NCBI RefSeq assembly: GCF_056712565.1
Contig: NZ_CM160072.1
Length of the DNA stretch: 64,000 bases
Direction: 5' to 3' (one strand)
Part shown: one piece after another, positions 1,878 through 59,071 of the stretch
Layout of the letters: the number at the start of each line of letters is the position of its first letter
Numbering within the stretch: the stretch's first letter is position 1
Made by a program: the position numbers and the translations under genes
The notes under the pieces: model-generated
Told to the model about the DNA's origin: nothing
What the model saw: only the letters and a program-made list of their open reading frames with translations
Databases searched by the model: none

Positions 1878-1887
1878 GGATATAAAG

Positions 1888-8198: not shown

Positions 8199-8351
8199 CC
8201 TTCCCTCACAGATGTCAGTACGCCAGCACGCTGTACAGGCTGTACAGCGTGCCTCCCAATCCTGCAGCCCAGAACAGTAGAAATATTTTGGCTCCTACAC
8301 TGTAGCGAGTCCGTATGCGCCGCAGTGGGTGGTAGTAACAACGCTGCTGTG

Positions 8352-9146: not shown

Positions 9147-9172
9147 TCAGACTCGTCCACGCCATTGCTACA

Positions 9173-9465: not shown

Positions 9466-9475
9466 AGGTACTGTT

Positions 9476-10039: not shown

Positions 10040-11108
10040 ACGCCACCGTGTACAGTTGTAAAAAAAAGAGAGGCACACCCAGATAAGTATGCCTGCAATC
10101 AGAACGTTATCGATGTAATCTCATTATCTCATTAATAAGATTTTTTGAATAGTAGTTCTACGCAACAGATTAAATATGAACTATTTATTGTGCAGCTTTT
10201 CTACAAGTCATTTTTAATGCGTGTTTTTATCTACTATAATGTGAAAAAAATAAATATTAAAACTATGAGTGACAGGTCGTGTGGGATGTGTATTACGTCT
10301 AATGCTTTAGTAATTTTTTATTATTTCTGAGATATTTAACATCATTTCCTGTGAGATTGTCTTGTTGTGTATCTAATTGATTTTAATTTTGTTTTTTTTG
10401 ATGCATAAATTTGGATGATAGAAAGTAAGATTAGCTTAATATCAATGATATGAATTTATAAATACATATTGTTGCAAGGTGTTCTTTACTTTTTTGGTCG
10501 TTAGTAAATCATTGTTAATGGGTTCTGTTCATAAATTAAAAATATTCATTTAAATGATTTTTACTTTTTGTATATCTCAATTTGTTTATTTTGCATTCAT
10601 TTGATGGAGAGTATTCCAACACTTTTTATTTTTCGCAAAAAACTTATTAACAACTTTTTATTATCAATTGAAAATTAATGTAAACTAAAATGTTAGCGAA
10701 GCGATAATCTTGTGCTAAAAAATATTTAAGCATGATGATTAATTAAAGAAGAGTAAAAATAAATCGCTGCTAATAAATTATACGAACCGTGTTTAAAGCT
10801 CCATGTGGTTTTGGTCTGACTTATTTTTGTACTCGTTACAAGAACCCTTTTCGTACATGCTAACCGTGAGCGGGAATGAACAGGTAACCATAGCCAGGAA
10901 CATTAGCGGCGTAATTCTTAAGCTGAGTGGTATTTCATCTGTAGTTTATCTGTGTATGCATAGCACCTTCATCAGCCAGATTGAGCAAGTCAGCTTAGAA
11001 TTTGCTGGTGAGATTGTCACGATGAAGCATGAGAGTTACCTCAGTGTTTTATATAAGGATTCGGTCCTCATAGTAGAACGGTAACTCTCAATCTGATAGG
11101 TTCCTGAG

Positions 11109-12797
11109 TCAGTTCACATCACGACTCATTTTTTTCGCTCTCACCGGCATCCCATTTGCCACAAAATATCTTGCCGTGCTCCTCGGCAACGCATCCTTCC
11201 CGCGAATCATATCCGCCATTTTCTCGCCAATCATAATCGTCGTGGCGTTCAAATTGCCGGTGATAATCTGCGGCATAATTGACGCATCCACCACGCGCAG
11301 GCCTTCCAGCCCGTGTACGCGGCCTTCGGCGTCAACCACTGCCATCTCGTCATAACCCATTTTGCAGGTACCGCACGGGTGGAAGGCGGTTTCGGCGTGG
11401 TTACGCACGAACTCATCGAGCTGCTCATCCGTCTGGCATTCGACACCGGGGCTGATTTCGCGGCCACGATACTGATCCAGCGCCGGTTGATGCATGATCT
11501 CCCGGGTGATGCGAATTGCGTCGCGGAACTCCTGCCAGTCCTGCTCGTGCGACATGTAGTTAAACAGAATCGCCGGATGCTGGTGCGGGTCGCGGGATTT
11601 AATCCGCACATGCCCACGGCTTGGCGAGCGCATCGATCCGACGTGGCACTGGAAGCCGTGCTCTTTCACTGCGTTCGAGCCGTTATAGTTAATCGCCACT
11701 GGCAGGAAATGGTACTGAATATTCGGCCACGCAAATTCCTCACGGCTGCGAATAAATCCGCCTGCTTCAAAGTGGTTGCTGGCACCAACGCCGGTGCCGC
11801 CAAACAGCCACTCCGCACCGATTTTCGGCTGATTCCACCACTGCAGGGCAGGGTAGAGGGAAACCGGTTCTTTGCACTCATATTGCAGATACATCTCCAG
11901 GTGATCCTGAAGATTTTCGCCGACGCCAGGTAATTCATGCACCAGCGGAATATCAAACTCCGCCAGCAGTTCAGCGTTGCCGACGCCGGAGCGTTGCAGG
12001 ATCTGCGGTGAAGCAATCGCGCCTGCACATAACAGCACTTCTTTATTCGCCGCCGCGCGGGTCGGAATGGTGCTGTCGCCTTCCAGCCACTCGACGCCCA
12101 CCGCGCGTTTGCCGTCAAAAAAGATGTGATCGGTCATGGCGTGAGTACGAATGGTCAGGTTAGGGCGCGATTTGGCCTGATCGAGATAGCCACGCGCGGT
12201 GCTGGCGCGACGGCCATGCGGCGTGACGGTGCGATCCATCGGGCCAAAACCTTCCTGCTGATAGCCGTTGAGATCGTCCGTGCGCGGGTAGCCCGCCTGC
12301 ACGCCCGCTTCAATCATCGCTTCAAACAGCGGATTGACGCCGGGTTTGGAGGTGGTGACGCTCACCGGGCCATCACCGCCGTGGTAGTCGTTCTCGCCCA
12401 CATCGCGAGTCTCGGCCTTGCGATAGTAGGGCAGGCAGTCGAGATAACTCCAGTTCTCCAGACCAGGTGCTTGTGCCCAGTTATCGAGATCCAGCGCATT
12501 GCCACGGATGTAGCACATACCGTTGATCAGCGATGAACCGCCCAGACCTTTGCCGCGTCCGCACTCCATGCGGCGGTTGTTCATAAACGGTTCGGGTTCC
12601 GTCTCATAGGCCCAGTTGTAGCGTTTGCCCTGTAGCGGGAACGCCAGCGCGGCGGGCATCTGGGTGCGGAAGTCAAAGCGATAGTCCGGGCCGCCTGCTT
12701 CAAGCAGCAGCACGGTTGTGTTCGGATCTTCAGTCAGACGGGTAGCGAGAACGTTGCCGGCTGAGCCGGCACCAATAATGATGTAGTCAAATTGCAA
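11109..12797 (-). CDS. betA: Choline dehydrogenase BetA (GMC oxidoreductase, FAD-binding)
   Basis: N-terminal GAGSAG FAD motif; apparent TTG start at 12797 with AGGAGG 5 nt upstream; the ORF-track ATG at 12842 would lie inside betB. Confidence 0.9.
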
Positions 12798-12810
12798 ATA
12801 AACCTCCTGG

Positions 12811-14283
12811 TTAGAATATGGACTGGAATTTAGCCATCTCAACCTGGATGGACTTCACCTGGGTGTAACTCTGGAGCGTCATCACTCCGTTCTCGCGACC
12901 AATGCCGGAGTGTTTGTAGCCGCCAACGGGCATCTCTGCCGGGGATTCGCCCCAGGTGTTGATCCAGCAAATACCCGCTTCCAGCTGATGAATGACGCGA
13001 TGCGCGAGGTTCAGGTCCGCCGTCACGATACCCGCCGCCAGACCGTAGTCGGTATCGTTAGCGCGGCGAATGACTTCGTCTTCCGACTCGTAGGTCAGAA
13101 TGGACATCACCGGCCCGAAAATCTCTTCTCGCACAATGGTCATATCGTCGCTGCAATCGGTGAACACGGTCGGTGCAACCCATGCGCCGTTATCGAAGCT
13201 ATCCCCCTTCAGTACATCGCCGCCGCACAGTACGCGCGCGCCTTCCTCTATGCCTTTGGCGATATAGCGCAGCACGTTATCGCGATGCGGGAAGCTGACC
13301 AGCGGGCCGAAGTTAGTTTGCGGATCGAAAACGTCGCCCGCGCGAATGCGCTCAACGCGCGCCAGAATCTTTTGTTCAAATGCGGCTTTGCATTTCGTCG
13401 GAACGAAGACGCGAGTGCCGTTGGTACACACCTGACCGGAGCTGAAGAAATTCGCCATCATGGTGATATCGGCGGCGAGATCGAGATCCGCATCGTCGAA
13501 AACGATCAGCGGTGATTTACCGCCCAGCTCCATGGTCACTTCTTTCAGGGAGGAAGCTGCCGAGTTAGCCATCACTTTTTTGCCGCTGGCGACACCCCCG
13601 GTAAATGACACTTTGGCAATGCCCGGATGATCGGTCAGATATTGCCCGGTCTCCGCGCCCACGCCCGGCAACACGTTAAATACACCGTCCGGCAGGCCCG
13701 CTTCGCTGTAAATTTCAGCCAGCTTTAACGCGGTAAGCGGGGTGACTTCGCTCGGTTTGAAGATCATCGCGTTACCCGCCGCCAGCGCGGGGGCGGATTT
13801 CCACAAAGCAATCTGGATCGGGTAGTTCCATGCGCCAATCCCCGCCACCACACCCAGCGGTTCGCGGCGGGTATAAACAAATGACGTCTCACGCAACGGG
13901 ATCTGGCTGCCTTCCAGCGCCGGGATCAGCCCGGCATAGTACTCCAGCACGTCCGCACCGGTAACGATATCGACGGTTGAGGTTTCCGAATATGCTTTTC
14001 CGGTGTCGAGGGTTTCCAGTTTTGCGAGTTCGTCATTGCGTTCACGCAGAATATCAACGGCCCGACGCAGAATACGCGAGCGTTCCATAGCGGTCATCGC
14101 CGCCCAGATTTTTTGCCCTTGTTGGGCACTCTTCACGGCGCGATCGACATCCTCACGCCCGGCGGCCTGCACGGTCGCCAGCACGTTACCGTTGGCCGGG
14201 TTAATGGTCTCGAAGGTGCGACCGCTGGTGGCGGAGGTATAACCACCATGTATATAAAGCTGCTGTTCTGCCATTCGGGACAT
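12811..14283 (-). CDS. betB: Betaine aldehyde dehydrogenase BetB
   Basis: 490-aa aldehyde dehydrogenase starting [14 protein letters not shown]; immediately upstream of betA. Confidence 0.95.
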
Positions 14284-14296
14284 CACGTTTCCTCGG

Positions 14297-14884
14297 TTAA
14301 TCGGTGGGTAAATGCTGAGTAATAAAGTGACGGGTCAGCGAGTGTGCGAGAGGTTTATCCAGCGCTTTGCCGCTCAGTGCCGCGCGCAGCCATAATCCGT
14401 CAATTAGCGCGGCAAGGCCGTAGCCCGCTTCCTGTGCCTGTTGGCGCGGTAACTCGCGGCGAAATTCGCTCACCAGATTCGACAATAAGCGGCGGCTACT
14501 GACCTGCTGCAAGCGATAGAGCATCGGCTGATGCATACTGCTGGCCCAGAAGGCCAGCCAGGCTTTCATCGCCGCACTGCTCACCTGGGTTTCATCGAAG
14601 TTTCCGCCAACAATCGCCTGTAATCGCAGCTCTGCACTGCCCTGCGGAAGTGCATGTAATCGATTCAAAACCGCGTCACGCAGCTGACTGGTGATATCGC
14701 GCATGGTTGCTTCCAGCAGACCATTTTTGTCCCTGAAATAGTGGCTGATGATCCCCGTAGAAACGCCTGCACGGCGGGCGATCTGCGCGATCGTTGCATC
14801 GTGCATGCCCACTTCATTTATTGCTTCCAGCGTGGCGTCGATCAGTTGTCTGCGCCGGATCGACTGCATCCCCAATTTGGGCAT
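14297..14884 (-). CDS. betI: TetR-family repressor BetI
   Basis: 195 aa from MPKLGMQS; TetR-type HTH; first gene of betIBA, divergent from betT. Confidence 0.9.
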
Positions 14885-15012
14885 TTTCGCCACTCCATTA
14901 ATCAGCGTTGTTTATCTATTAAAGCGGTTATTGATTGGACGTTCAATATAAAATGTGTCTTAATTGTTACTAATTTGATTTTAAATGGTAACAATAACAG
15001 TGGGGATACTGG
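14885..15012. promoter_or_regulatory. Divergent betI / betT promoter-operator region
   Basis: 128-bp AT-rich gap between divergently oriented betI and betT; operator not pinpointed. Confidence 0.5.
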
Positions 15013-17046
15013 ATGACAGACCTTTCACACAGCAGGGAAAAGGACAAAATCAATCCGGTGGTGTTTTACACTTCCGCCGGACTGATTTTGTTGTTTTCCC
15101 TGACAACGATCCTGTTTCGCGACTTCTCGGCCCTGTGGATTGGCCGCACGCTGGACTGGGTCTCTAAAACCTTCGGTTGGTACTATCTGCTGGCGGCAAC
15201 GCTCTATATTGTCTTTGTAGTCTGTATCGCTTGTTCGCGTTTTGGTTCGGTGAAGCTCGGGCCAGAACAATCAAAACCGGAATTCAGTCTGCTGAGTTGG
15301 GCGGCGATGCTGTTTGCTGCCGGGATCGGTATCGACCTGATGTTCTTCTCCGTAGCCGAACCGGTAACGCAGTATATGCAGCCGCCGGAAGGCGCGGGAC
15401 AGACGATTGAGGCCGCGCGTCAGGCGATGGTCTGGACGCTGTTTCACTACGGCTTAACCGGCTGGTCGATGTATGCGCTGATGGGCATGGCGCTCGGATA
15501 CTTTAGCTATCGTTATAATTTGCCGCTCACTATCCGCTCGGCGCTGTACCCGATCTTCGGTAAACGGATTAACGGGCCGATAGGTCACTCAGTGGATATT
15601 GCTGCGGTGATCGGCACCATCTTCGGTATTGCCACTACGCTCGGTATCGGTGTGGTACAGCTTAACTATGGCTTGAGCGTGCTGTTTGATATTCCCGATT
15701 CGATGGCGGCGAAAGCGGCACTGATCGCCTTGTCGGTGATCATCGCCACTATCTCGGTGACATCCGGTGTCGATAAGGGCATTCGCGTGTTATCGGAACT
15801 CAACGTTGCGCTGGCGCTGGGATTGATCCTGTTCGTGTTGTTTATGGGCGACACCTCGTTCCTGCTTAATGCACTGGTGCTGAATGTTGGCGACTATGTG
15901 AATCGCTTTATGGGCATGACGCTCAACAGTTTTGCCTTCGACCGTCCGGTTGAGTGGATGAATAACTGGACGCTCTTCTTCTGGGCATGGTGGGTGGCAT
16001 GGTCGCCGTTTGTCGGCTTGTTCCTGGCGCGTATCTCGCGTGGGCGTACCATTCGCCAGTTCGTGCTGGGCACGTTGATTATTCCGTTTACCTTCACGCT
16101 GTTATGGCTCTCGGTATTCGGCAATAGCGCGCTGTATGAAATCATCCACGGCGGCGCTGCATTTGCCGAGGAAGCGATGGTCCATCCGGAGCGCGGCTTC
16201 TACAGCCTGCTGGCGCAGTATCCGGCGTTTACCTTTAGCGCCTCCGTCGCCACCATTACTGGCCTGCTGTTTTATGTGACCTCGGCGGACTCCGGTGCGT
16301 TGGTGCTGGGGAATTTCACCTCGCAGCTTAAAGATATCAACAGCGACGCACCCGGCTGGCTGCGCGTCTTCTGGTCGGTGGCGATTGGCCTGCTGACGCT
16401 AGGCATGCTGATGACCAACGGGATATCCGCGCTGCAAAACACCACGGTGATTATGGGCCTGCCGTTCAGCTTTGTGATCTTCTTCGTGATGGCGGGGTTG
16501 TATAAATCTCTGAAGGTAGAAGATTACCGCCGTGAAAGTGCCAACCGCGATACCGCGCCGCGACCGCTGGGGCTTCAGGATCGCCTGAGCTGGAAAAAAC
16601 GTCTCTCGCGCCTGATGAATTATCCGGGCACGCGTTACACTAAACAGATGATGGAGACGGTCTGTTATCCTGCAATGGAAGAAGTGGCGCAGGAACTGCG
16701 GTTGCGCGGCGCGTACGTGGAGCTAAAAAACCTGCCGCCGGAAGAGGGACAACAGTTGGGGCATCTGGATTTGTTGGTGCATATGGGCGAAGAGCAGAAC
16801 TTTGTCTATCAGATTTGGCCGCAGCAATATTCAGTGCCGGGCTTTACCTACCGCGCACGTAGCGGGAAATCGACCTACTACCGGCTGGAAACCTTCCTGT
16901 TAGAAGGCAGCCAGGGCAACGACCTGATGGACTACAGCAAAGAGCAGGTGATCACCGATATTCTCGACCAGTACGAGCGGCACCTTAACTTTATCCATCT
17001 CCATCGTGAAGCGCCGGGCCATAGCGTGATGTTCCCGGACTCGTGA
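15013..17046 (+). CDS. betT: Choline transporter BetT (BCCT family)
   Basis: 677-aa polytopic membrane protein; divergent from betIBA. Confidence 0.95.
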   Translation: MTDLSHSREKDKINPVVFYTSAGLILLFSLTTILFRDFSALWIGRTLDWVSKTFGWYYLLAATLYIVFVVCIACSRFGSVKLGPEQSKPEFSLLSWAAMLFAAGIGIDLMFFSVAEPVTQYMQPPEGAGQTIEAARQAMVWTLFHYGLTGWSMYALMGMALGYFSYRYNLPLTIRSALYPIFGKRINGPIGHSVDIAAVIGTIFGIATTLGIGVVQLNYGLSVLFDIPDSMAAKAALIALSVIIATISVTSGVDKGIRVLSELNVALALGLILFVLFMGDTSFLLNALVLNVGDYVNRFMGMTLNSFAFDRPVEWMNNWTLFFWAWWVAWSPFVGLFLARISRGRTIRQFVLGTLIIPFTFTLLWLSVFGNSALYEIIHGGAAFAEEAMVHPERGFYSLLAQYPAFTFSASVATITGLLFYVTSADSGALVLGNFTSQLKDINSDAPGWLRVFWSVAIGLLTLGMLMTNGISALQNTTVIMGLPFSFVIFFVMAGLYKSLKVEDYRRESANRDTAPRPLGLQDRLSWKKRLSRLMNYPGTRYTKQMMETVCYPAMEEVAQELRLRGAYVELKNLPPEEGQQLGHLDLLVHMGEEQNFVYQIWPQQYSVPGFTYRARSGKSTYYRLETFLLEGSQGNDLMDYSKEQVITDILDQYERHLNFIHLHREAPGHSVMFPDS

Positions 17047-25314: not shown

Positions 25315-25405
25315 TTTCTGCCGGATGCGGCGTGAACGCCTTATCCGGCCTACGAGTGGCGCAAGAATCTGTAGGCCTGATAAGCGTAGCGCATCAGGCA
25401 GTCTG
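25315..25405. repeat. REP (repetitive extragenic palindromic) elements
   Basis: gccggatgcggcgtgaacgccttatccggcctac and the inverted tgtaggcctgataagcg...catcaggc motifs between yahG and yahI. Confidence 0.8.
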
Positions 25406-27792: not shown

Positions 27793-28089
27793 TACGAACT
27801 TGATATGTCTGCAACGGTGAACAGTAAGAGATTTAAGCCCCAGGGAGTGGGGCATCAATGGTTTGCTAATGAATGATCCTGAACTTTATAATCTCCGGGC
27901 ATAATTTCCAGGGGATTATTTGAGAGAAATACACAAAAGTGAGTTTTAACAAAGGTATTTATCAAGCCATAAATGTGACCTGCTTCGGATAAAAAGATTA
28001 AACATAGAAAAACCAATGATCCTCTTGCTGATGGTTATCAACAGTAATTAAGATGTGATTTGTTTTTCCGTAATCGCGAAAATATTCTC

Positions 28090-28500
28090 ATGACCATAAA
28101 AGAAAAAATCTCACAAAAATATCCCCATGCTTCCTTTTGTACTTTTGGCGATTCAGCAGCGTTGGCCGATCACCTCGCAACGTTGATTGCGACTGGTGTT
28201 AAAACAGCTTCCTGTGGTTCGCTGGCGGGATGTATTGAAGACAACGCATTTCCGATGATTGGGGAGTATAAGATTGTAGAAAATAGCCGTGGTGAGCCTG
28301 TCTGTGTTATCAGAGTAATTGGCCTGCATTTACTGCGCTTTTCTGATGTCACCGCGGAGCTTGCCCGTAAGGAAGGTGAAGGTGACCTCAGTCTTGAATA
28401 TTGGCGTAATGAACACCGTCGTTTTTTCCAGGCAGAAGGATGCTATTCACCCGAAATGGACGTTATCTTTGAAGAATATGCCCTTATTGACGTTGTGTAG
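28090..28500 (+). CDS. Hypothetical protein; weak, unverified resemblance to ASCH-type small proteins. Start uncertain (TTG at 28060 or ATG at 28090)
   Basis: 136-146 aa ORF in an AT-rich stretch upstream of the ABC transporter; not in the K-12 gene order as I recall it. Confidence 0.45.
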   Translation: MTIKEKISQKYPHASFCTFGDSAALADHLATLIATGVKTASCGSLAGCIEDNAFPMIGEYKIVENSRGEPVCVIRVIGLHLLRFSDVTAELARKEGEGDLSLEYWRNEHRRFFQAEGCYSPEMDVIFEEYALIDVV

Positions 28501-28750
28501 ATAACTATTTTTCTACGCGAAATAAGCTCACAAACATAAAGTATCGCTAATTTTGTTTATTTTGCTATTTTTTACGTGATGATTGTCACACTTATTGTTA
28601 CTGCCCGTTTTGTCCATATTTATAACCAAATTTTTAATAGCTGCCTGAAATAGGGCTGTTTATTCTGCATAAAAATATTCGAAAATTCTTATTCTCTCCA
28701 GCGCGCTAATTTGGGCGAACACTTCCTGACTACCCTGCAATGAGGCTGAA

Positions 28751-29737
28751 ATGATGAATAAACGTTTTGTTATCAATATGGTGTCTTCGCTGTTATTAGG
28801 CGCTGCGCTAATTTCTGCGCCGCTCCAGGCCGCGGAAAAAGTCGTGGTGAATATCTCTAAAGTCGATGGTATGCCGTGGTTTAATCGCATGGGCGAAGGT
28901 GTGGTTGAGGCGGGTAAAGCCTTTGGTGTTAATGCGTCACAGGTGGGGCCTTCAAGTACTGATGCTCCACAACAAGTTAAAATTATTGAGGATTTAATCG
29001 CCCGTAAGGTTAATGCAATTACAATTGTGCCAAACGATGCCAACGTGCTGGAACCGGTATTCAAAAAAGCGCGAGATGCCGGAATTGTGGTTCTGACCAA
29101 CGAATCCCCCGGTCAGCCAAGTGCTAACTGGGATATCGAAATCATTGATAACGAAAAATTTGCCGCTGAATATGTTGAGCATATGGCGAAACGCATGGGT
29201 GGCAAGGGCGGCTATGTGATTTACGTGGGTAGTTTGACCGTGCCGCAGCATAACTTATGGGCTGACTTGCTGGTGAAATACCAGAAAGAGCATTACCCGG
29301 ATATGCATGAAGTTACCCGCCGCATGCCGGTTGCCGAGAGTGTGGATGACTCACGTCGTACTACACTGGACCTGATGAAAACCTATCCTGACTTGAAAGC
29401 GGTTGTCTCCTTTGGTTCAAACGGTCCGATTGGCGCGGGACGTGCAGTGAAAGAGAAACGGGCGAAAAATAAAGTCGCAGTCTATGGCATGATGATCCCT
29501 TCACAGGCGGCATCACTGATTAAAAGTGGTGATATCACCGAAGGGATTACTTACGATCCGGCCTCTGCAGGTTACGCACTCGCGGCCGTCGCCAGCACGT
29601 TGCTGAAGGGTGAAGAGATCAAACCTGGATTAGAAATGCAGAATCTGGGTAAGGCCGACGTAGATATGGATAAGCGAATTATCCGTTTCCATAAGGTATT
29701 ACTGGTCAACAAAGACAATATCGACTCACTTTATTAA
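28751..29737 (+). CDS. Periplasmic sugar-binding protein of a CUT2-family ABC transporter, LsrB-like
   Basis: 328 aa with signal peptide; C-terminus KVLLVNKDNIDSLY resembles the LsrB C-terminus as I recall it; GAGG motif upstream. Confidence 0.8.
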   Translation: MMNKRFVINMVSSLLLGAALISAPLQAAEKVVVNISKVDGMPWFNRMGEGVVEAGKAFGVNASQVGPSSTDAPQQVKIIEDLIARKVNAITIVPNDANVLEPVFKKARDAGIVVLTNESPGQPSANWDIEIIDNEKFAAEYVEHMAKRMGGKGGYVIYVGSLTVPQHNLWADLLVKYQKEHYPDMHEVTRRMPVAESVDDSRRTTLDLMKTYPDLKAVVSFGSNGPIGAGRAVKEKRAKNKVAVYGMMIPSQAASLIKSGDITEGITYDPASAGYALAAVASTLLKGEEIKPGLEMQNLGKADVDMDKRIIRFHKVLLVNKDNIDSLY

Positions 29738-29785
29738 TCCATTTCTTCGGGGCGAAAGCCCCGATTCTTATTGCCAGGGGATGTT

Positions 29786-31270
29786 ATGGAAACCTTCCTT
29801 TCCCTTCGTCATATCAACAAAACGTTTCATGCCACGCGAGCGCTGCGCGATGTTTCTCTCGACTTTATGTCGGGTGAAGTGCACTGTCTTGCCGGGCAAA
29901 ACGGCTGTGGTAAATCGACGTTGATTAAAATTATGTCCGGTGTTTATCGCCCGGATGAGGGAGCGGAAATTACGCTTGGTGGGAAAAACTGGTCAAAGCT
30001 GACACCCGCCGCTTCGGTGGCGCAGGGGATTCAGGTGATTTATCAGGACCTCTCTTTATTTCCTAACCTGAGTGTCTGGGAGAATATCGCCGTGAATCAC
30101 TATCACCACGGTCTGTTTGTTAACCGACGTCGTCTGCGTGAGGTGGCGCAGGCGGCAATGACCAGTATTAACGTCACATTGCCACTGGATACGCTCGTTT
30201 CTGAGCTTTCAATTGCCCGCTGTCAGCTGGTGGCAATTTGCCGTGCACTGGCGCAGGACGCACGGTTGATCGTGATGGATGAACCAACCGCTTCGCTGAC
30301 CCATCAGGAAGTGCAAGGGTTATTACAGGTGGTGCATCAATTGCGGGAACGCGGGATCTGCGTGGTCTTCGTCAGTCATCGTCTGGAAGAAGTGATGGAA
30401 GTTTCCGACCGTATTTCAGTGCTGAAAGATGGTGAGCTGGTCGGGACCTTTCCGGCCGCAGAGATGACCACAAAACAACTCGGTTTTCTGATGACCGGCC
30501 AGGAGTTTGAATATCAGGTGCGAGAGTTGTGGCAGGGAAAATCCAGCACCCCGGTGCTGGAGGTGCGTAATTTAAGTCGTCATGGGGAATATCTAAATAT
30601 TAACTTGCGGGTGGAAGCGGGCGAAGTGGTATCGATTGTTGGCCTGCTTGGTGCGGGGCGCACGGAATTATGTCTGAGTCTGTTTGGTATGACCCGACCG
30701 GATGCTGGCGAGATCCTCATCAACGGCCAGCTGGTTACACTGCATAGTAACCAGGACGCCATCCGCCACGGTATTGGTTATGTTTCGGAAGATCGCATGT
30801 CGCGCGGTTTGGTGATGGCGCAATCTATTGAAGACAACATCATTAGCACTGTTTTTCACAAGGTAAAAGATCGCTTCGGCTTTCTGAGTGAAGCTAAAGT
30901 GTGTGACCTGGTGGACAGGCTAATCAAGGCATTGACCATCAAAGTCTCTGATCCTCATCTCCCGGTGAATACGCTTTCTGGTGGTAACGCGCAGCGAGTA
31001 TCGATCGCCAAATGGCTGGCGATTGGGCCACGACTGTTGATTCTCGATAGCCCGACAGTCGGTGTTGATATCGCCAACAAAGCAGGAATATACGGCATTA
31101 TCAGCGATCTGGCGGCTCATGGCATTGCGGTATTGATGATCTGCGATGAAATTGAAGAAGCGTGGTATCAAAGCCACCGGATTTTGGTAATGCAAAAAGG
31201 TCAGATCACCCATAGCTTCCTGCCTGACAGCAGTTCTCAGGCCAGGATTGCGGAGGTGGTAAATGGCTGA
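29786..31270 (+). CDS. ABC transporter ATP-binding protein with duplicated ATPase domains (RbsA/LsrA-like)
   Basis: Two nucleotide-binding domains (GQNGCGKST; GLLGAGRTE); start at METFLSL with AGGGGA upstream. Confidence 0.85.
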   Translation: METFLSLRHINKTFHATRALRDVSLDFMSGEVHCLAGQNGCGKSTLIKIMSGVYRPDEGAEITLGGKNWSKLTPAASVAQGIQVIYQDLSLFPNLSVWENIAVNHYHHGLFVNRRRLREVAQAAMTSINVTLPLDTLVSELSIARCQLVAICRALAQDARLIVMDEPTASLTHQEVQGLLQVVHQLRERGICVVFVSHRLEEVMEVSDRISVLKDGELVGTFPAAEMTTKQLGFLMTGQEFEYQVRELWQGKSSTPVLEVRNLSRHGEYLNINLRVEAGEVVSIVGLLGAGRTELCLSLFGMTRPDAGEILINGQLVTLHSNQDAIRHGIGYVSEDRMSRGLVMAQSIEDNIISTVFHKVKDRFGFLSEAKVCDLVDRLIKALTIKVSDPHLPVNTLSGGNAQRVSIAKWLAIGPRLLILDSPTVGVDIANKAGIYGIISDLAAHGIAVLMICDEIEEAWYQSHRILVMQKGQITHSFLPDSSSQARIAEVVNG

Positions 31271-32234
31271 ACTGAAAAAACGCCATGAATTCTGGCTGGC
31301 ATTACTGATTGTGGTGCTGTTTGTTGGCCTTGCCTGGCGCAGCGACGAGTTTCTGACATTCGGTAATTTGTACGATCTCGCCAATAACTATGCCATGTTG
31401 ACTATTCTCGCCTGTGGTTTGTTTGTGGTGTTAATTTCCGGTGGGATTGATATTTCGTTTCCGGCAATGACCATCATTGCGCAATACGGCATGGTGCTGC
31501 TGCTGCAAAAAATTGGTGGCAACTTTGCTGTCGCGTTTGCCCTGGCGGGCGGCATCGGCATTTTACTTGGCTTAATTAACGCCTTACTGGTTAATCGCCT
31601 ACGGGTGCCTTCTATCATCATCACTATCTCGACGCTGAATATTTTTTATGGCCTGCTGTTATGGTTGAGTAAAGGTGTGTGGCTGTACGACTTTCCGCCG
31701 TGGTTTGAGCAGGGGGTAATGTTGTTCAAGTACACCGATGCTGATGGCTATGACTATGGCCTTGGTCTGCCGCTGATCGCCATGATTACGGTGGTGCTGC
31801 TGACAGCGTTTATCATGAATTTCACCAGTGTAGGGCGCAAAATTTATGCCCTTGGCGGGAACCGCGAATCAGCCAGTCGCATCGGCTTTAGTGTGCTGAA
31901 ACTGCAACTTTTCGTCTATGGCTATATGGGATTGATGTCTGGTGCTGCGGGTGTAGTGCAGTCGTGGACGGTGATGACTGTCGCCCCCGATTCTCTTCTG
32001 GGTTATGAGCTGACAGTACTGGCTGCGGTGGTGCTTGGCGGCACTAGTTTGCTCGGCGGGCGCGGCACGTTAACCGGTACTTTGCTCGGCGTGGTGTTGT
32101 TGGCAGTGATGCAAAACGGGCTAAATTTATTGGGAGTCTCGTCTTACTGGCAAACATTGATCACCGGCATCATCATCGTTGCCAGCATTAGCGCCACGGC
32201 GTGGAGTCAGCATCAGAACCGGAGTCTGCTATGA
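31263..32234 (+). CDS. ABC transporter permease (RbsC/LsrC-like)
   Basis: 323-aa polytopic membrane protein; start overlaps the ATPase stop. Confidence 0.85.
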   Translation: MAELKKRHEFWLALLIVVLFVGLAWRSDEFLTFGNLYDLANNYAMLTILACGLFVVLISGGIDISFPAMTIIAQYGMVLLLQKIGGNFAVAFALAGGIGILLGLINALLVNRLRVPSIIITISTLNIFYGLLLWLSKGVWLYDFPPWFEQGVMLFKYTDADGYDYGLGLPLIAMITVVLLTAFIMNFTSVGRKIYALGGNRESASRIGFSVLKLQLFVYGYMGLMSGAAGVVQSWTVMTVAPDSLLGYELTVLAAVVLGGTSLLGGRGTLTGTLLGVVLLAVMQNGLNLLGVSSYWQTLITGIIIVASISATAWSQHQNRSLL

Positions 32235-33187
32235 AAAAATCGTGGCGTAATAACGTTGAGTTTTACTTGATCGGCCTGCTGGTGCTAACTGTTGCCGCCT
32301 TCAGCATTACTATGCCGGAGATTTTCTGGTCGATAAGTAATTTCCAGTCCGTCGCTTCGCAAATGCCCGTGCTGGGCATTCTGGCGTTGGCTATGGCGGT
32401 GACCATGCTTTGCGGTGGCATTAACTTGTCAATTATAGCCACTGCTAACGCCTGTTCACTGGTGATGGCGTGGGTGGCGACTCAGTATCCACCAGGTATT
32501 GCTACGGTTGTCGCTACGCTGCTGGCGGGCGCTGGCGCGGCGGTGATAATCGGTTTATGTAACGGCGTATTGATTGCTGGTATTCGAGTGTCGCCAATTC
32601 TTGCAACACTTGGGATGATGACGTTGCTCAAAGGGGTTAATATTCTGGTGACAGGCGGTAGCGCCATTGCCAATTATCCCTCATGGGTGCTGTGGTTGAA
32701 TCATGCACAGTGGTTCGGTATTCCGCTACCGATGTGGTTGTTTACCGCAGTGGCGCTGGGGCTGTGGATATTGCTGGAGAAAACGCCGCTCGGTAAATCC
32801 ATTTATCTGATTGGTTCTAACGAACGAGCAACACTTTACTCCGGTATTAACACTCGTCGGGTGCTGATATGGGTGTATGTCATTTCCGCCTTGCTTTGTG
32901 CGGTAGCGGCATTTTTGATGATGTCGAAACTCAACTCGGCTAAGGCCTCTTATGGCGAATCTTACTTGCTGGTGTCAATCCTCGCGGCAGTACTCGGCGG
33001 GGTTAATCCGGACGGCGGCAGCGGGCGGATAATTGGTATGGTGCTGGCGCTGTTTCTTCTGCAAATTATTGAAAGCGGCTTCAATATTCTCGGTATAAGC
33101 CCCTACCTGACGATGGCCTTATGGGGAACGTTGCTGCTCTGTTTCATTCAGGCTCGCGGCATGTTAGGGCTGGATCGGGTGGTTTAA
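32231..33187 (+). CDS. ABC transporter permease (RbsC/LsrD-like)
   Basis: About 318-aa membrane protein; ATGA overlap with the upstream permease. Confidence 0.85.
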   Translation: MKKSWRNNVEFYLIGLLVLTVAAFSITMPEIFWSISNFQSVASQMPVLGILALAMAVTMLCGGINLSIIATANACSLVMAWVATQYPPGIATVVATLLAGAGAAVIIGLCNGVLIAGIRVSPILATLGMMTLLKGVNILVTGGSAIANYPSWVLWLNHAQWFGIPLPMWLFTAVALGLWILLEKTPLGKSIYLIGSNERATLYSGINTRRVLIWVYVISALLCAVAAFLMMSKLNSAKASYGESYLLVSILAAVLGGVNPDGGSGRIIGMVLALFLLQIIESGFNILGISPYLTMALWGTLLLCFIQARGMLGLDRVV

Positions 33188-36300: not shown

Positions 36301-36400
36301 TTCTGAAACCTATGTAAACATCCCCGATGCGTAAGTTTATCGGTGATCATCATCTATTGAAATTTATGCCGGATAAAGCGTTCGCGCTGCATTCGGCAGT

Positions 36401-39116: not shown

Positions 39117-39160
39117 AACACAACGAAAAATATCTCGACCCTACAAATGACGAGGACAAC

Positions 39161-41854: not shown

Positions 41855-43741
41855 ATGTCTTTTAGCGAATTTTATCAGCGTTCGATTAACGAACCGGAGC
41901 AGTTCTGGGCCGAGCAGGCCCGGCGTATTGACTGGCAGACGCCCTTTACGCAAACGCTCGACCACAGCAACCCGCCGTTTGCCCGTTGGTTTTGTGAAGG
42001 CCGAACCAACTTGTGTCACAACGCTATCGATCGCTGGCTGGAGAAACAGCCAGAGGCGCTGGCATTGATTGCCGTCTCTTCGGAAACAGAGGAAGAGCGT
42101 ACCTTTACCTTTCGTCAGCTGCATGACGAAGTGAACGCGGTGGCCTCAATGTTGCGTTCATTGGGGGTGCAGCGTGGCGATCGGGTGCTGGTGTATATGC
42201 CGATGATTGCCGAAGCGCATATTACTCTGCTGGCCTGCGCGCGTATTGGCGCTATTCACTCGGTGGTGTTTGGTGGATTTGCCTCGCACAGCGTGGCGGC
42301 GCGAATTGATGATGCTAAACCGGTGCTGATTGTCTCGGCTGATGCCGGAGCGCGCGGTGGCAAAATCATTCCCTATAAAAAATTACTCGACGATGCGATA
42401 AGTCAGGCGCAGCATCAGCCGCGCCACGTTTTACTGGTGGATCGCGGACTGGCGAAAATGGCGCGCGTCAGCGGGCGGGATGTCGATTTCGCGTCGTTGC
42501 GCCATCAACACATCGGTGCGCGGGTGCCGGTGGCGTGGCTGGAATCCAACGAAACCTCCTGCATTCTCTACACCTCCGGCACGACCGGCAAACCTAAAGG
42601 TGTGCAGCGTGATGTCGGCGGATATGCGGTGGCGCTGGCGACCTCGATGGACACCATTTTTGGCGGCAAAGCGGGCGGCGTGTTCTTTTGTGCTTCGGAT
42701 ATCGGCTGGGTGGTAGGGCATTCGTATATCGTTTACGCGCCGCTGCTGGCGGGGATGGCGACTATCGTTTACGAAGGATTGCCGACCTGGCCGGACTGCG
42801 GCGTGTGGTGGAAAATTGTCGAGAAATATCAGGTTAGCCGCATGTTCTCAGCGCCGACCGCCATTCGCGTGCTGAAAAAATTCCCTACCGCTGAAATTCG
42901 CAAACACGATCTTTCGTCGCTGGAAGTGCTCTATCTGGCTGGAGAACCGCTGGATGAGCCGACCGCCAGTTGGGTGAGCAATACGCTGGATGTGCCGGTC
43001 ATCGACAACTACTGGCAGACCGAATCCGGCTGGCCGATTATGGCGATTGCTCGCGGTCTGGATGACAGGCCGACGCGTCTGGGAAGCCCCGGCGTGCCGA
43101 TGTATGGCTATAACGTGCAGTTGCTCAATGAAGTCACCGGCGAACCGTGTGGCGTCAATGAGAAAGGGATGCTGGTAGTGGAGGGGCCATTGCCGCCAGG
43201 CTGTATTCAGACCATCTGGGGCGACGACGACCGCTTTGTGAAGACGTACTGGTCGCTGTTTTCCCGTCCGGTGTACGCCACTTTTGACTGGGGCATCCGC
43301 GATGCTGACGGTTATCACTTTATTCTCGGGCGCACTGACGATGTGATTAACGTTGCCGGACATCGGCTGGGTACGCGTGAGATTGAAGAGAGTATCTCCA
43401 GTCATCCGGGCGTTGCCGAAGTGGCGGTGGTTGGGGTGAAAGATGCGCTGAAAGGGCAGGTGGCGGTGGCGTTTGTCATTCCGAAAGAGAGCGACAGTCT
43501 GGAAGACCGTGAGGTGGCGCACTTGCAAGAGAAGGCAATTATGGCGCTGGTAGACAGCCAGATTGGCAACTTTGGCCGCCCGGCGCACGTCTGGTTTGTC
43601 TCGCAATTGCCAAAAACGCGATCCGGAAAAATGCTGCGCCGCACGATCCAGGCGATTTGCGAAGGACGCGATCCTGGGGATCTGACGACCATTGATGATC
43701 CGGCGTCGTTGGATCAGATCCGCCAGGCGATGGAAGAGTAG
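41855..43741 (+). CDS. prpE: Propionyl-CoA synthetase PrpE
   Basis: 628 aa acyl-CoA synthetase with AMP-binding motif YTSGTTGKPKG. Confidence 0.95.
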   Translation: MSFSEFYQRSINEPEQFWAEQARRIDWQTPFTQTLDHSNPPFARWFCEGRTNLCHNAIDRWLEKQPEALALIAVSSETEEERTFTFRQLHDEVNAVASMLRSLGVQRGDRVLVYMPMIAEAHITLLACARIGAIHSVVFGGFASHSVAARIDDAKPVLIVSADAGARGGKIIPYKKLLDDAISQAQHQPRHVLLVDRGLAKMARVSGRDVDFASLRHQHIGARVPVAWLESNETSCILYTSGTTGKPKGVQRDVGGYAVALATSMDTIFGGKAGGVFFCASDIGWVVGHSYIVYAPLLAGMATIVYEGLPTWPDCGVWWKIVEKYQVSRMFSAPTAIRVLKKFPTAEIRKHDLSSLEVLYLAGEPLDEPTASWVSNTLDVPVIDNYWQTESGWPIMAIARGLDDRPTRLGSPGVPMYGYNVQLLNEVTGEPCGVNEKGMLVVEGPLPPGCIQTIWGDDDRFVKTYWSLFSRPVYATFDWGIRDADGYHFILGRTDDVINVAGHRLGTREIEESISSHPGVAEVAVVGVKDALKGQVAVAFVIPKESDSLEDREVAHLQEKAIMALVDSQIGNFGRPAHVWFVSQLPKTRSGKMLRRTIQAICEGRDPGDLTTIDDPASLDQIRQAMEE

Positions 43742-43914
43742 GTCGGATAAGGCGCTCGCGCCGCATCCGACACCGTGCGCAGATGCCTGATGCGACGCTG
43801 ACGCGTCTTATCATGCCTACAGGCCTGAACCGTAGGTCGGATAAGGCGCTCGCGCCGCATCCGACACCATGCGCAGATGCCTGATGCGACGCTGACGCGT
43901 CTTATCATGCCTAC
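43738..43914. repeat. Two tandem ~83-bp REP-containing units (BIME-like) after prpE
   Basis: Near-identical units at 43738-43820 and 43832-43914, each built from inverted REP motifs. Confidence 0.85.
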
Positions 43915-44065
43915 CCACTGTTTTTACACAGATAAGTTTCCCCCGCCTTTTTGCACTCATTCATATAAAAAATATATCCCCCTACGAAAACGATTGCTTT
44001 TTATCTTCAGATGAATAGAATGCGGCGGATTTTTTGGGTTTCAAACAGCAAAAAGGGGGAATTTC

Positions 44066-45325
44066 GTGTCGCAAGATAACAACTTTAGCCAGGGGCCAGT
44101 CCCGCAGTCGGCGCGGAAAGGGGTATTGGCATTGACGTTCGTCATGCTGGGATTAACCTTCTTTTCCGCCAGTATGTGGACCGGCGGCACTCTCGGAACC
44201 GGTCTTAGCTATCATGATTTCTTCCTCGCAGTTCTCATCGGTAATCTTCTCCTCGGTATTTACACTTCATTTCTTGGTTACATTGGCGCAAAAACCGGCC
44301 TGACCACCCATCTTCTTGCTCGCTTCTCGTTTGGTGTTAAAGGCTCATGGTTGCCTTCACTGCTGCTGGGCGGCACCCAGGTTGGCTGGTTTGGCGTTGG
44401 CGTGGCGATGTTTTCTATTCCGGTGGGCAAGGCAACCGGGCTGGATATTAATTTGCTGATTGCCGTCTCCGGTTTACTGATGACCGTCACCGTCTTCTTT
44501 GGCATTTCGGCGCTGACGGTTCTTTCGGTGATTGCGGTTCCGGCTATCGCCTGCCTTGGCGGTTATTCCGTGTGGCTGGCCGTTAACGGCATGGGCGGCC
44601 TGGACGTATTAAAAGCGGTCGTTCCCGCACAACCGTTAGATTTCAATGTCGCGCTGGCGCTGGTTGTGGGGTCATTCATCAGTGCGGGTACGCTCACCGC
44701 TGACTTTGTCCGGTTTGGTCGCAATGCCAAACTGGCGGTGCTGGTGGCGATGGTGGCCTTTTTCCTCGGCAACTCGTTGATGTTTATTTTCGGTGCAGCG
44801 GGCGCTGCGGCACTGGGGATGGCGGATATCTCTGATGTGATGATTGCTCAGGGCCTGCTGCTGCCTGCGATTGTGGTGCTGGGGCTGAATATCTGGACCA
44901 CCAACGATAACGCGCTCTATGCGTCGGGTTTAGGTTTCGCCAACATTACCGGTATGTCGAGCAAAACCCTTTCGGTGATTAACGGTATTATCGGTACGGT
45001 CTGCGCATTATGGCTGTATAACAATTTTGTCGGCTGGTTGACCTTCCTTTCGGCAGCTATTCCTCCAGTGGGCGGCGTGATCATCGCTGATTATCTGATG
45101 AACCGTCGCCGCTATGAGCACTTTGCGACCACGCGTATGATGAGTGTCAATTGGGTGGCGATTCTGGCGGTCGCGCTGGGGATTGCCGCAGGCCACTGGT
45201 TACCGGGAATTGTTCCGGTCAACGCGGTATTAGGTGGCGCGCTGAGCTATCTGATCCTTAACCCGATTTTGAATCGTAAAACGACAGCAGCAATGACGCA
45301 TGTGGAGGCTAACAGTGTCGAATAA
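44066..45325 (+). CDS. codB: Cytosine permease CodB
   Basis: 419 aa; GTG start after a G-rich Shine-Dalgarno; NCS1-family membrane protein. Confidence 0.95.
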
Positions 45326-46598: not shown

Positions 46599-46627
46599 TC
46601 GGCTGGGTTACCGCGAGCGTAGTTTAT

Positions 46628-46705
46628 GCCGGATGCGGCGTGAACACCTTATCCGGCCTACGTAGATCTCTGAAATTGTAGGCCTGATAAGCGGAGCGCA
46701 TCAGG
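46628..46705. repeat. REP elements in the codA-lacA gap
   Basis: gccggatgcggcgtgaacaccttatccggcctac and inverted tgtaggcctgataagcggagcgcatcaggc. Confidence 0.8.
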
Positions 46706-46718
46706 CAATTTTGCTTAT

Positions 46719-47339: not shown

Positions 47340-47395
47340 TCCGCCCTGATATGTTGGTCGGATAAGGCGCTCGCGCCGCATCCGACATTGATTGC
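47340..47395. repeat. REP element between lacA and lacY
   Basis: ggtcggataaggcgctcgcgccgcatccgac motif; its translation explains the spurious MRRERLIRPT N-terminal extension of the lacA ORF. Confidence 0.75.
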
Positions 47396-52980: not shown

Positions 52981-53181
52981 ATTCACCACCCTGAATTGAC
53001 TCTCTTCCGGGCGCTATCATGCCATACCGCGAAAGGTTTTGCGCCATTCGGCGAGGCTGACGCCGAAGTGAGATTTAAAATGCTGACGCCAGGTCACAGG
53101 TGAGAGAAAACCCACGCCAATACACCTACGGCGTTTACAGGTATACTCGCTAAAAATTATTCAGCGGGTTTGGAAACAAAG

Positions 53182-53721: not shown

Positions 53722-53946
<225 letters not shown>

Positions 53947-57948: not shown

Positions 57949-59071
57949 AAATAATCCAGATGGCATAAGCTAATAATACATACACAACGGAAAGCGGTGC
58001 TAAAGGCACCAACAACCAGCAACGATGAAACCAGGCGCTAAATGCACCAATAACACAAACTACGCCGACCCAGATAAGCGGGAACATTGCCAACACCACA
58101 CCATGTGGCCCGGTGGTGATGAATTCATTAAACCAGGTAGTGAGATAAATACCAACGCCATAAAGCACAACCAACAGCATAGGAAATATACTGAAGATAC
58201 CGAAGCGGCTAAATAAAAGTCTTTTATGCAGGCGCATACAGACCGCGTAGCCCACAATCCAACGCCGCCAGCGGCGCCACTCCTCACGCGGACTGTTACA
58301 TTCCTGTGGGTATACGATGCAGCGATTCGCCTGCCGAATACGGTAGCCGTTTGCCACCAATGTCCAGGTGAGATCAAGGTCTTCGACTTTAGTACGATCC
58401 GAGAAACCGAACTTACGCAATACATCAGTACGGAACATCCCGCAGGCACCGCTGATGATAAACGGTGCGCCGCCCAGAAGCTGCTGTAGCGTGCGCTTCA
58501 TAACAATCATCGGCAACTTTACGGTCGCGCGGATGTGTAGCTGCTGTAGCGTGCGCTTCATAACAATCATCGGCAACTTTACGGTCGCGCGGATGTGTGG
58601 TAACAGACCCGCGCCTTTCAACGCAGTAGAGGGAATGCCGCCTACGGCATCAGCGCCACGCTCAATTTCCGCCAGCATATAGCCCATTCCGTCTTGATCG
58701 GGCGGAACATAGGTGTCGGCATCACTTAAAAAAACCTGATCGCAGGTGGCGTAATTGAGGCCATTCATCAGCGCACCACCTTTACCGGTATTTTTTTGCG
58801 TGACGGCAACAAAGCGGTCGCCCCATTTGCGTTTGACTTCCGCCATGACCGCTTCGGTATTGTCCATGGAGCCGTCGTTAACGCAAATTACCCGGCAAAA
58901 ATAAGGGTTACGCAGCAGATTATCCAGTGACTGCGCCAGACACGGGCCTTCGTTATAAGCAGGTATAATGGCGTCAATACAGCCTTTCTTTTGGCTGGGC
59001 TTACGCCTTAACGTACTCAGAAACCATAGCAATATTGCTACGGCCATACATATAAAGATCCAGGTTTTCAT
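57815..59071 (-). CDS. yaiP: Family-2 glycosyltransferase YaiP, carrying an in-frame 20-aa tandem duplication
   Basis: 418 aa (398 expected without the duplication); glycosyltransferase-like N-terminus, C-terminal membrane segments. Confidence 0.85.
   Translation of the reverse strand: MKTWIFICMAVAILLWFLSTLRRKPSQKKGCIDAIIPAYNEGPCLAQSLDNLLRNPYFCRVICVNDGSMDNTEAVMAEVKRKWGDRFVAVTQKNTGKGGALMNGLNYATCDQVFLSDADTYVPPDQDGMGYMLAEIERGADAVGGIPSTALKGAGLLPHIRATVKLPMIVMKRTLQQLHIRATVKLPMIVMKRTLQQLLGGAPFIISGACGMFRTDVLRKFGFSDRTKVEDLDLTWTLVANGYRIRQANRCIVYPQECNSPREEWRRWRRWIVGYAVCMRLHKRLLFSRFGIFSIFPMLLVVLYGVGIYLTTWFNEFITTGPHGVVLAMFPLIWVGVVCVIGAFSAWFHRCWLLVPLAPLSVVYVLLAYAIWIIYGLIAFFTGREPQRDKPTRYSALVEVSTAYSHPSVTGTEKLSEA
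58481..58600. repeat. Tandem duplication of a 60-bp unit (units differ at 1 position) inside yaiP
   Basis: ctgctgtagcgtgcgcttcataacaatcatcggcaactttacggtcgcgcggatgtgt occurs twice consecutively. Confidence 0.9.

Follow-up and report, generated by a model that had tools for sequence, protein, structure and literature searches.

What are the two near-identical tandem units that begin at the very end of prpE, do the short peptides that recur in their six-frame translation correspond to genes, and what might the repeats do to a transcript that runs through them? We addressed these questions in a 64,000-nt stretch of DNA (the window) from an ATCC 11775-like E. coli strain of phylogroup B2. Considered as a whole, the reading to which we give high confidence is that of a BIME-2 array, likely acting locally in the prpE 3'UTR by analogy with studied REPs, evolving by gain and loss of units, and generating ORFs that are by-products. 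The features discussed below are listed in Table 1.

Table 1. Features of the prpE-codB array, ORFs lying in it, and other REP sites of the 64-kb window
Feature	Position	Strand	Description
Y-type REP copy 1	43738..43771	-	30/35 to published Y reference; nhmmer E = 1.7e-10
prpE stop codon TAG	43739..43741	+	inside the GTAG of REP copy 1; hairpin stem starts at 43742, the next base
Head-to-head linker copy 1	43772..43784		13 nt, ACCGTGCGCAGAT; same length as REP325 Y-Z2 linker
Z2-type REP copy 1	43785..43820	+	GCCTGATGCGACGCTGACGCGTCTTATCATGCCTAC; 34/37 ungapped to published Z2 reference; one mismatch to REP pattern
Tail-to-tail inter-unit linker	43821..43831		11 nt, AGGCCTGAACC; from sequence
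Y-type REP copy 2	43832..43865	-	half-site scan, published Y reference, nhmmer
Head-to-head linker copy 2	43866..43878		13 nt, ACCATGCGCAGAT; holds the single inter-unit difference
Z2-type REP copy 2	43879..43914	+	REP pattern, Z2 reference, hairpin fold
Rfam RF02564 (naRNA4, REP325 unit) match, unit 1	43741..43817	+	70.2 bits, model 1-77 of 77
Rfam RF02564 (naRNA4) match, unit 2	43835..43911	+	68.3 bits, full-length
Spurious 64-aa ORF	43714..43908	-	contains MIRRVSVASGICA and MRRERLIRPT; starts in unit 2, ends antisense to last prpE codons
Spurious 91-aa ORF	43539..43814	-	starts in unit 1, extends antisense into prpE
Spurious 33-aa ORF	43783..43884	+	MPDATLTRLIMPTGLNRRSDKALAPHPTPCADA; deposited in NCBI as 'mannitol-1-phosphate 5-dehydrogenase', a wrong name
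yahG-yahI REP pair	25319..25399		Y(+) 25319-25353, 17-nt linker, Z1(-) 25371-25399
Degenerate truncated Y-like REP, yahO-prpR	36368..36397	-	nhmmer E = 7e-4; without CCTAC tail
codA-lacA REP pair	46627..46706		Y(+) 46627-46661, 16-nt linker, Z1(-) 46678-46706
Lone Y-type REP, lacY-lacA	47353..47386	-	9 nt past lacY stop; identical in K-12
yaiL-frmB BIME-2 array	53745..53932		Z2(+) Y(-) Z2(+) Y(-); period 101; conserved in K-12

Tandem Repeats Finder (TRF) reports a single tandem array at 43738-43914 (period 94, 1.9 copies, 98% matches, score 347). Its two 83-bp cores (43738-43820 and 43832-43914) are one base apart (82/83 identical, 98.8%), so that the original prediction of two near-identical 83-bp units in tandem after prpE holds, the period being however 94 bp, which is the 83-bp unit plus the 11-nt linker. 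Within each unit, an inverted Y-type REP is joined through a 13-nt linker to a Z2-type REP, which is the BIME-2 layout, and the order along the array is Y(-) Z2(+) Y(-) Z2(+). The intergenic region runs from the prpE stop (43741) to the codB start (44066), and the array takes up its first 177 bp. The prpE ORF (41855-43741) ends with a TAG that lies within the GTAG of REP copy 1; apart from this tetranucleotide of the first unit, the array is extragenic, as REPs are. All four REP units carry GTAG or CTAC. Y REP copy 1 begins with GTAG on the + strand, which is the prpE mRNA strand, and reads GTCGGATGCGGCGCGAGCGCCTTATCCGACCTAC on the - strand, the classical orientation. The inter-unit linker also separates every pair of neighbouring units in the O157, NRG 857C and K-12 alleles, and a T5 run starts 8 nt past the end of Z2 copy 2 (CCCACTGTTTTT).

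The prpE-codB array is a REP/BIME-2 cluster, of a kind well known in E. coli, and no new type of element or mechanism is indicated. In BIME-1 (RIB-RIP) elements, Y and Z1 are set apart by a long L motif with an IHF site in it. This identity was rejected for the prpE array, which has Z2 and not Z1, and the Y-Z1 pairs present at yahG-yahI and codA-lacA are not of that class either, their linkers being just 16-17 nt long. The original prediction hinged on a match of the units to the REP consensus, and they align both to published Y and Z2 references and to an Rfam model based on REP325. With the Y, Z1 and Z2 reference sequences as quoted in PMC11208160, identity in the prpE array is 30/35 for Y and 34/37 for Z2; the remaining sites of the window give 33-35/35 for Y and 28-29/30 for Z1. 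The REP consensus pattern occurs three times in the window and not once in 100 dinucleotide-preserving shuffles. Both units exceed the gathering score of the Rfam family RF02564 (59.5), a match which means family membership and not function, as the naRNA4 model in effect detects any Y-Z2 doublet. Like other REPs these are dispersed in many copies, 13 clear ones and a degenerate one within the 64-kb window; the median number of places hit per genome is 11 for a query that contains the array and one for its flanks alone. The alternation of inverted Y and Z2 in tandem, with one to eight units among strains, is that of BIME-2, for which DNA gyrase binding and cleavage is a property attributed to Espeli & Boccard (1997) by PMC12306157.

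REPs are defined as imperfect palindromes about 30-40 nt long, flanked by GTAG/CTAC, in which an internal mismatch or bulge is conserved (PMC8266576), and the folds predicted here are of this form, with two stems parted by an AA/GC internal loop. The calculated energies are -17.4 kcal/mol for the Y hairpin of copy 1 (z = -3.9) and -14.8 kcal/mol for its Z2 hairpin (z = -5.2), and the fold of the whole array has a z of -6.7. Across 24 units from eight loci, 97.4% of the cells are paired and five pairs are changed on both sides; none of 500 shuffles matched the observed values, and slid controls were at most 41% paired. The Z2 copies of the window carry a G-to-T change (ATCATGCC) that disrupts one stem pair. 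The minimum-free-energy fold of the entire array is one long hairpin between units 1 and 2, which we took to be a thermodynamic artefact of the palindromes; in these models the local hairpins are the more likely candidates for structures formed during transcription.

Half-site scans and an nhmmer profile placed the 13 clear REPs of the 64-kb window in exactly five intergenic regions, which are the five junctions named in the original prediction, and the degenerate yahO-prpR copy comes in addition. The statement that such repeats mark operon boundaries does not apply to the lacY-lacA REP, which is inside the lacZYA operon. At yaiL-frmB, the TRF range is 53731-53941 and an naRNA4 match covers 53800-53878 (81 bits). 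It had also been proposed that several of the repeats coincide with junctions where gene content differs from K-12, and this is true of two of the five sites. At yahG-yahI, K-12 has four Y-Z1 units bearing the annotated ORF yahH, where the window has one pair. At codA-lacA, cynRTSX is absent from the window and the presence/absence breakpoint falls inside the BIME, window positions 46651-46710 aligning to both K-12 357507-357566 and K-12 361181-361240. The prpE-codB, lacY-lacA and yaiL-frmB sites are, on the contrary, syntenic with K-12. Over the about 41 kb in which REP positions were compared with K-12 indels, REPs are involved in 3-4 of the seven structural differences; no REP was found on either side of the breakpoints at yahJ-yahK (27854-33116), yahL (34545) and mhp (53050-53113), which are the three largest indels other than cyn. 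The link between REPs and indels is therefore real but partial. In E. coli, REP/BIME arrays are hotspots of structural variation, and these loci are a compact local example: unit numbers change, an entire array is lost, a cyn segment of 3.6 kb is flanked by BIME copies, and IS621 or IS1 has inserted.

The prpE-codB array itself is polymorphic in unit number. Alleles were read in a spread sample of 60 genomes out of 5426 complete ones, and those with one, two, three and eight units were found in 17, 25, 5 and 7 of the sampled genomes, respectively. Two strains have IS621 and IS1 insertions in the array; in strain 22-245, IS621 lies inside the last Z2, after ...ATCAGGCCT. Expansion and contraction would proceed through unequal recombination or slippage between units, and the array serves as a target for IS621.

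By analogy with other REPs, the array is likely to work as a stabiliser of mRNA in the 3'UTR and as a partial terminator. On the prpBCDE transcript, each unit would fold into two stable bulged hairpins, which would block 3'-to-5' exonucleases and thereby stabilise the upstream prp mRNA, as proposed from REP325 and other studied REPs; by the same analogy, the hairpins would attenuate read-through into codBA, partly via Rho. At REP325, yjdM mRNA is stabilised and transcription of yjdN is attenuated with partial Rho dependence, and the effects of REPs are described as strongly context-dependent (bioRxiv 10.64898/2026.03.23.713779). Translation of PrpE might also be lowered, because the first hairpin abuts the stop codon and REPs at 15 nt or less from a stop codon stall ribosomes, according to the summary of Liang et al. 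(2015) in PMC12306157. We infer every functional step for the prpE array by such analogies. A literature search on the prpE-codB REP specifically returned nothing relevant. No particular unit number seems to be required, since strains with one to eight units all exist, and this range also fits a near-neutral element.

The array may thus have no selected function at the prpE-codB site, side-effects on the RNA being still possible. Besides the spread of unit numbers, such a reading is in keeping with the fact that whole arrays come and go between strains (K-12 has a prpB-prpC array and the window has none), and with the conservation in all units of the GTAG tetranucleotide, which is needed by TnpA-REP (PMC8266576). 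However, almost every E. coli genome has an array at this locus (its flanks are present in 5229/5426 genomes), at least one doublet is kept in every sampled allele, and the compensatory changes maintain the hairpins, so that we regard the absence of a selected function as a tentative reading and a rather unlikely one. That the prp operon has its Rho-independent terminator in the last Z2 hairpin and the downstream T run is doubtful to a greater degree: a T5 run (TGTTTTT) does lie 8 nt past the last hairpin, and a few REPs are known as coincidental intrinsic terminators, but CCTACCCACTG separates the T run from the stem, a distance too great for a canonical terminator, and a terminator scan of 43400-44200, which includes the stretch between prpE and codB, gave no + strand site, which led us to drop this reading. 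More improbable still is a role of the units as genes for small nucleoid-associated RNAs of the naRNA4 type that condense the chromosome with HU. On the strand that is transcribed from prpE, each unit matches the Rfam model over its full length and exceeds the gathering score, and naRNA4 was reported to bind HU and to condense DNA (Qian et al., 2015; PMC4550694); a re-examination in 2026, however, found that nucleoid size is unaffected by deletion or overexpression of REP325, and detected neither a stable HU-RNA-DNA ternary complex nor REP-REP contacts in Hi-C (bioRxiv 10.64898/2026.03.23.713779), and a covariance match speaks for the sequence family only. Local action on the prp transcript is the reading that we prefer to these three.

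The short ORFs of the array are annotation artefacts, by-products of the palindromes and not genes, as originally predicted for the recurring peptides. MRRERLIRPT occurs five times, at four of the five REP loci, and MIRRVSVASGICA twice, only in the prpE-codB array; all these occurrences are translated REP DNA, and the same REP peptides arise at unrelated loci, on both strands and in both orientations. Because the period, at 94 nt, is not divisible by 3, the ORF sequence changes with unit number, and the set of ORFs differs among alleles with one, two, three and eight units. None of the array ORFs has a Pfam match and none is called in the RefSeq annotation of ATCC 11775. Sequences identical to the 64-aa ORF are deposited as 'hypothetical protein', including WP_267648546.1; the 91-aa ORF has no identical entry in the protein collection searched. 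It is extremely unlikely that the array ORFs (64, 91, 47, 45 and 33 aa) represent genuine genes for small proteins: deposited NCBI proteins of identical sequence, one with a WP_ accession, and the survival in K-12 listings of yahH, an ORF wholly within a REP array, weigh little against ORFs read from the two strands of the same palindromes, a frame that rotates with each unit, and variation that preserves base pairing, and the exact-sequence records are uninformatively or wrongly named, so that the coding reading was abandoned. The main value of this case is for quality control, as REP arrays keep producing false protein records and should be masked ahead of ORF calling.

Several known systems can be compared with this array. 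The ORF yahH (b0322) of K-12 likewise arises from translation of tandem REPs alone, with the difference that its array repeats every 93 bp, which is divisible by 3, and therefore gives an in-frame repeated peptide, whereas the 94-bp period of the prpE array gives rotating frames; the window has no yahH and just one Y-Z1 pair at that site. The prpE-codB REP element of K-12 MG1655 (about 354593-354770) shares its intergenic position with the array of the window; its second unit is 95% identical, and neither the linker nor the codB leader downstream differs from the window. The two differ at the prpE end: in K-12, O157 and other non-B2 alleles a degenerate palindrome, GTCGGATGCGTCGCGYGGYGCATCCGRC, comes first, 6 nt past the stop, whereas the window has a canonical Y REP directly at the stop (0 nt). 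IS621, an element of the IS110 family with a bridge-RNA recombinase, is inserted in strain 22-245 in agreement with its published natural target ATCAGGCCTAC; the window is without any IS, and the sequence of its Z2 copies, ATCATGCCTAC, departs from this target by one mismatch. It is conceivable, although we think it improbable, that a unit-level rearrangement in B2 dropped the degenerate palindrome and that this, with the polymorphism from one to eight units, could make the array a lineage-specific dial for tmRNA tagging and translation termination of PrpE, for the stability of prp mRNA and for read-through into codBA, the Z2 G-to-T change perhaps protecting it from IS621 insertion.

The doublets mobilised by TnpA-REP (REPIN/RAYT; the E. 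coli REPtron) are likewise made of two inverted REPs with a short spacer, and their conserved GTAG guide tetranucleotide and bulged imperfect stem are also present in the prpE array. No RAYT gene lies within the window, and the copy-number changes of the prpE array look like gain and loss of tandem units rather than dispersal as in REPIN/RAYT. The nearest model for the proposed action on the prp transcript is REP325 (naRNA1-6; Rfam RF02564), the BIME-2 array between yjdM and yjdN in K-12, with which the prpE array shares the 83-bp GTAGG-Y-13 nt-Z2-CCTAC doublet and the orientation relative to the upstream co-directional gene, both arrays being located between two tandem genes. The differences are in number and in sequence. 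REP325 has six units where the prpE array of the window has two; the inter-unit, tail-to-tail spacer is 17 nt in REP325 against 11 nt here, and the head-to-head linkers are equal in length but different in sequence; the linker motifs catalogued for BIME-2 (Bachellier et al.) are S for head-to-head and l, r or s for tail-to-tail junctions. Unit identity between the two arrays is just 79-87%. Compared with REP325, the Y REPs of the window have a compensated U-A pair instead of C-G at the base of the stem, and the Z2 copies have one pair broken.

The repeats that follow prpE form a BIME-2 array, in which Y and Z2 palindromes alternate in inverted orientation; it occupies the 3' region of prpE on the strand that is transcribed, and its hairpins are conserved. 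This confirms the repeat array noted in the original prediction, and supports its interpretation as REP sequences. The window corresponds to the reverse strand of the E. coli ATCC 11775 chromosome (DSM 30083, NZ_CP033092.2), with 100% identity over 43400-44300 and about 99.98% in a base-by-base comparison of 23400-64000, where the two differ only by a handful of SNPs and a single 60-bp duplication. In yaiP (glycosyltransferase, - strand) we observed a perfect, in-frame 60-bp tandem duplication (20 codons, 58479-58598); the segment is single-copy in the ATCC 11775 record and in all 12 best-matching complete genomes listed, where the region matches over 261 bp compared with 321 bp in the window. 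Tandem Repeats Finder detected a single array after prpE (period 94, 1.9 copies, 98% matches, score 347). The prpE-codB intergenic region measures 324 bp, and the array takes up its initial 177 bp. The two cores differ by one base and are separated by an 11-nt linker, AGGCCTGAACC; the predicted unit length of 83 bp was thus correct, the repeat period however is 94.

Positions and composition of the prpE array, neighbouring genes and other REP sites of the window
Feature	Location	Length	Strand	Remark
prpE	41855-43741		+	NZ_CP033092.2 annotation
REP/BIME-2 array	43738-43914	177 bp
First core	43738-43820	83 bp
Second core	43832-43914	83 bp
Y-type REP, unit part 1		34 nt		classical orientation on - strand; + strand begins GTAGG
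Linker, unit part 2		13 nt		between Y and Z2
Z2-type REP, unit part 3		36 nt	+	ends CCTAC
Array ORF	43783-43884	33 aa	+
codB	44066-45325		+	NZ_CP033092.2 annotation
Y-Z1 pair	yahG-yahI			REP reference comparison
Y-Z1 pair	codA-lacA			REP reference comparison
Lone Y	lacY-lacA			REP reference comparison
Second Y-Z2 array	yaiL-frmB			REP reference comparison

The Y copies match the reference sequences quoted in PMC11208160 at 30/35 positions and the Z2 copies at 34/37, and the layout is the alternating one described for E. coli BIMEs (PMC8266576, PMC4550694). The Rfam model naRNA4 (RF02564), which derives from units of the K-12 BIME-2 element REP325, covers both units of the prpE array over 77/77 model positions, with 70.2 and 68.3 bits for a gathering score of 59.5, and scores higher on the transcribed (+) strand than on the - strand. 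The array is a textbook REP/BIME-2 element with a K-12 ortholog. Single REPs fold into bulged hairpins (-17.4 and -14.8 kcal/mol, z = -3.9 and -5.2), and the stability of the complete array is well above that of shuffled sequences (z = -6.7). We aligned 24 different Y-Z2 units, taken at eight loci of K-12, O157:H7, strain 22-245 and the window. In this alignment 97.4% of cells are paired in the two-hairpin structure, and at five pairs both partners have changed, most clearly at the basal pair of the Y stem, where 12 units have C-G and 12 have U-A. All 500 shuffles fell short of these values, and slid controls were at most 41% paired. Both Z2 copies of the prpE array carry a G-to-T change (43812 and 43906, ATCATGCC) that breaks one stem pair; the O157 and NRG 857C alleles share it, but the final Z2 of K-12 and that of strain 22-245 lack it.

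The array is polymorphic in copy number. Its flanks are present in 5229/5426 complete E. coli genomes, and flank-to-flank insert length, read in 60 of them spread across the ranking, corresponds to one unit in 17 (88-95 bp), two in 25 (177-191 bp), three in 5 (276-284 bp) and eight in 7 (745-753 bp); the other six comprise one IS1-carrying allele and five split or partial matches. IS1 occupies the prpE-codB intergenic region of strain MS20673. Among five loci read directly, elppa4 has one unit, K-12 two, NRG 857C three and O157:H7 Z1813 eight, while in strain 22-245 (prpE-codB intergenic region, 3521-4900 of locus L007) the final Z2 of the orthologous array is interrupted immediately after ...ATCAGGCCT by IS621, an element of the IS110 family with a bridge-RNA recombinase. 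This site matches the published natural IS621 target, ATCAGGCCTAC (PMC11208160), from which both Z2 copies of the window's prpE array depart by reading ATCATGCCTAC. Non-B2 alleles, including K-12, start with a degenerate palindrome 6 nt past the stop codon, whereas in the window and NRG 857C a canonical Y begins at the prpE stop codon itself (TAG within GTAG); a deletion between two GTAGGT motifs would account for this difference. The variation in copy number is also compatible with a reading of the array as a near-neutral, RAYT-related selfish element.

A degenerate REP pattern matched the window three times and none of 100 dinucleotide-preserving shuffles. Half-site scans, together with an nhmmer profile made from the copies, yielded 13 clear REPs, which sit in exactly the five intergenic regions named in the original prediction; none was found in 1-15550. 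A sixth REP site, unlisted there, is a degenerate, truncated, tail-less Y-like sequence at 36368-36397 (-), just past the stop codon of prpR, in the interval where this gene and yahO converge. The proposal that several REPs coincide with gene-content junctions relative to K-12 holds only in part, for two of the five listed sites. At yahG-yahI the window has one Y-Z1 pair and K-12 four, in an array that carries yahH, and at codA-lacA the 3.6-kb cynRTSX segment is missing from the window with a breakpoint inside the BIME, 46651-46710 aligning to both K-12 flanks of the segment. The REPs at lacY-lacA and at yaiL-frmB lie in synteny with near-identical copies in K-12. The list also omits one site where the window retains no REP: at prpB-prpC, a four-unit K-12 array of 389 bp is wholly missing (39121-39124), and the 44-bp intergenic region holds no REP remnant of an array loss or gain. 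REPs were found on neither side of the 5.3-kb yahJ-yahK insertion (27854-33116; ASCH and an AI-2-type ABC transporter), of the 0.8-kb yahL indel (34545; yahL is absent from the window), or of the 9.1-kb mhp deletion (junction 53050-53113), where about 62 bp with a GlxA-family pseudogene remnant replace the cluster. An island with hyxR-hyxA-hyxB and ipbA (fimX-type invertase) lies at about 6000-10000, upstream of betA, and is presumably absent from K-12 at that position.

Reading both strands gives six ORFs, of 32-91 aa, that overlap the array. Their dismissal as artefacts is well supported: every occurrence of MRRERLIRPT (five) and MIRRVSVASGICA (two) is translated REP DNA, a Pfam search with four of them (64, 91, 47 and 45 aa) gave no match, none of the six is called in the ATCC 11775 RefSeq annotation, and the frame shifts with each added unit because a period of 94 nt is not divisible by three. 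In the eight-unit O157 allele, 61-aa ORFs overlap one another in a tiled series, and K-12 yahH, whose array has a 93-bp period, is the same phenomenon. Of five ORF translations compared with the public protein collection, four have identical entries there: the 64-aa ORF appears as "hypothetical protein" (WP_267648546.1 among others), the 47- and 45-aa ORFs as "hypothetical", and the 33-aa ORF is named "mannitol-1-phosphate 5-dehydrogenase" in many NCBI records, a propagated misannotation. The practical value of the array is as a warning for annotation and as a local case of structural variation associated with REPs.

The best-supported mechanism is that the array would stabilise the upstream mRNA and attenuate expression of the downstream gene, since it shares its architecture and tandem-gene context with REP325, the K-12 model BIME-2 array between yjdM and yjdN. 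In the yjdMN operon, REP325 makes the mRNA upstream of it more stable and lowers expression of the gene downstream roughly ten-fold, in part through Rho; a role with HU in the nucleoid, proposed for it before, could not be reproduced (bioRxiv 10.64898/2026.03.23.713779). A terminator scan of the + strand over 43400-44200 found no canonical intrinsic terminator at the prpE array. A second effect may be lower PrpE translation, as the first hairpin starts immediately past the stop codon and ribosome stalling is reported for REPs within 15 nt of a stop codon (Liang et al., 2015, as cited in PMC12306157); gyrase binding by BIME-2 is likewise among the literature cited there. Counted from GTAGG through CCTAC, the units of REP325 are exactly 83 bp long, as are those of the prpE array; in both, Y and Z2 are linked by 13 nt and the units are oriented alike with respect to the gene upstream. 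The two arrays differ in their inter-unit spacer, which is 17 nt in REP325 and 11 nt after prpE.
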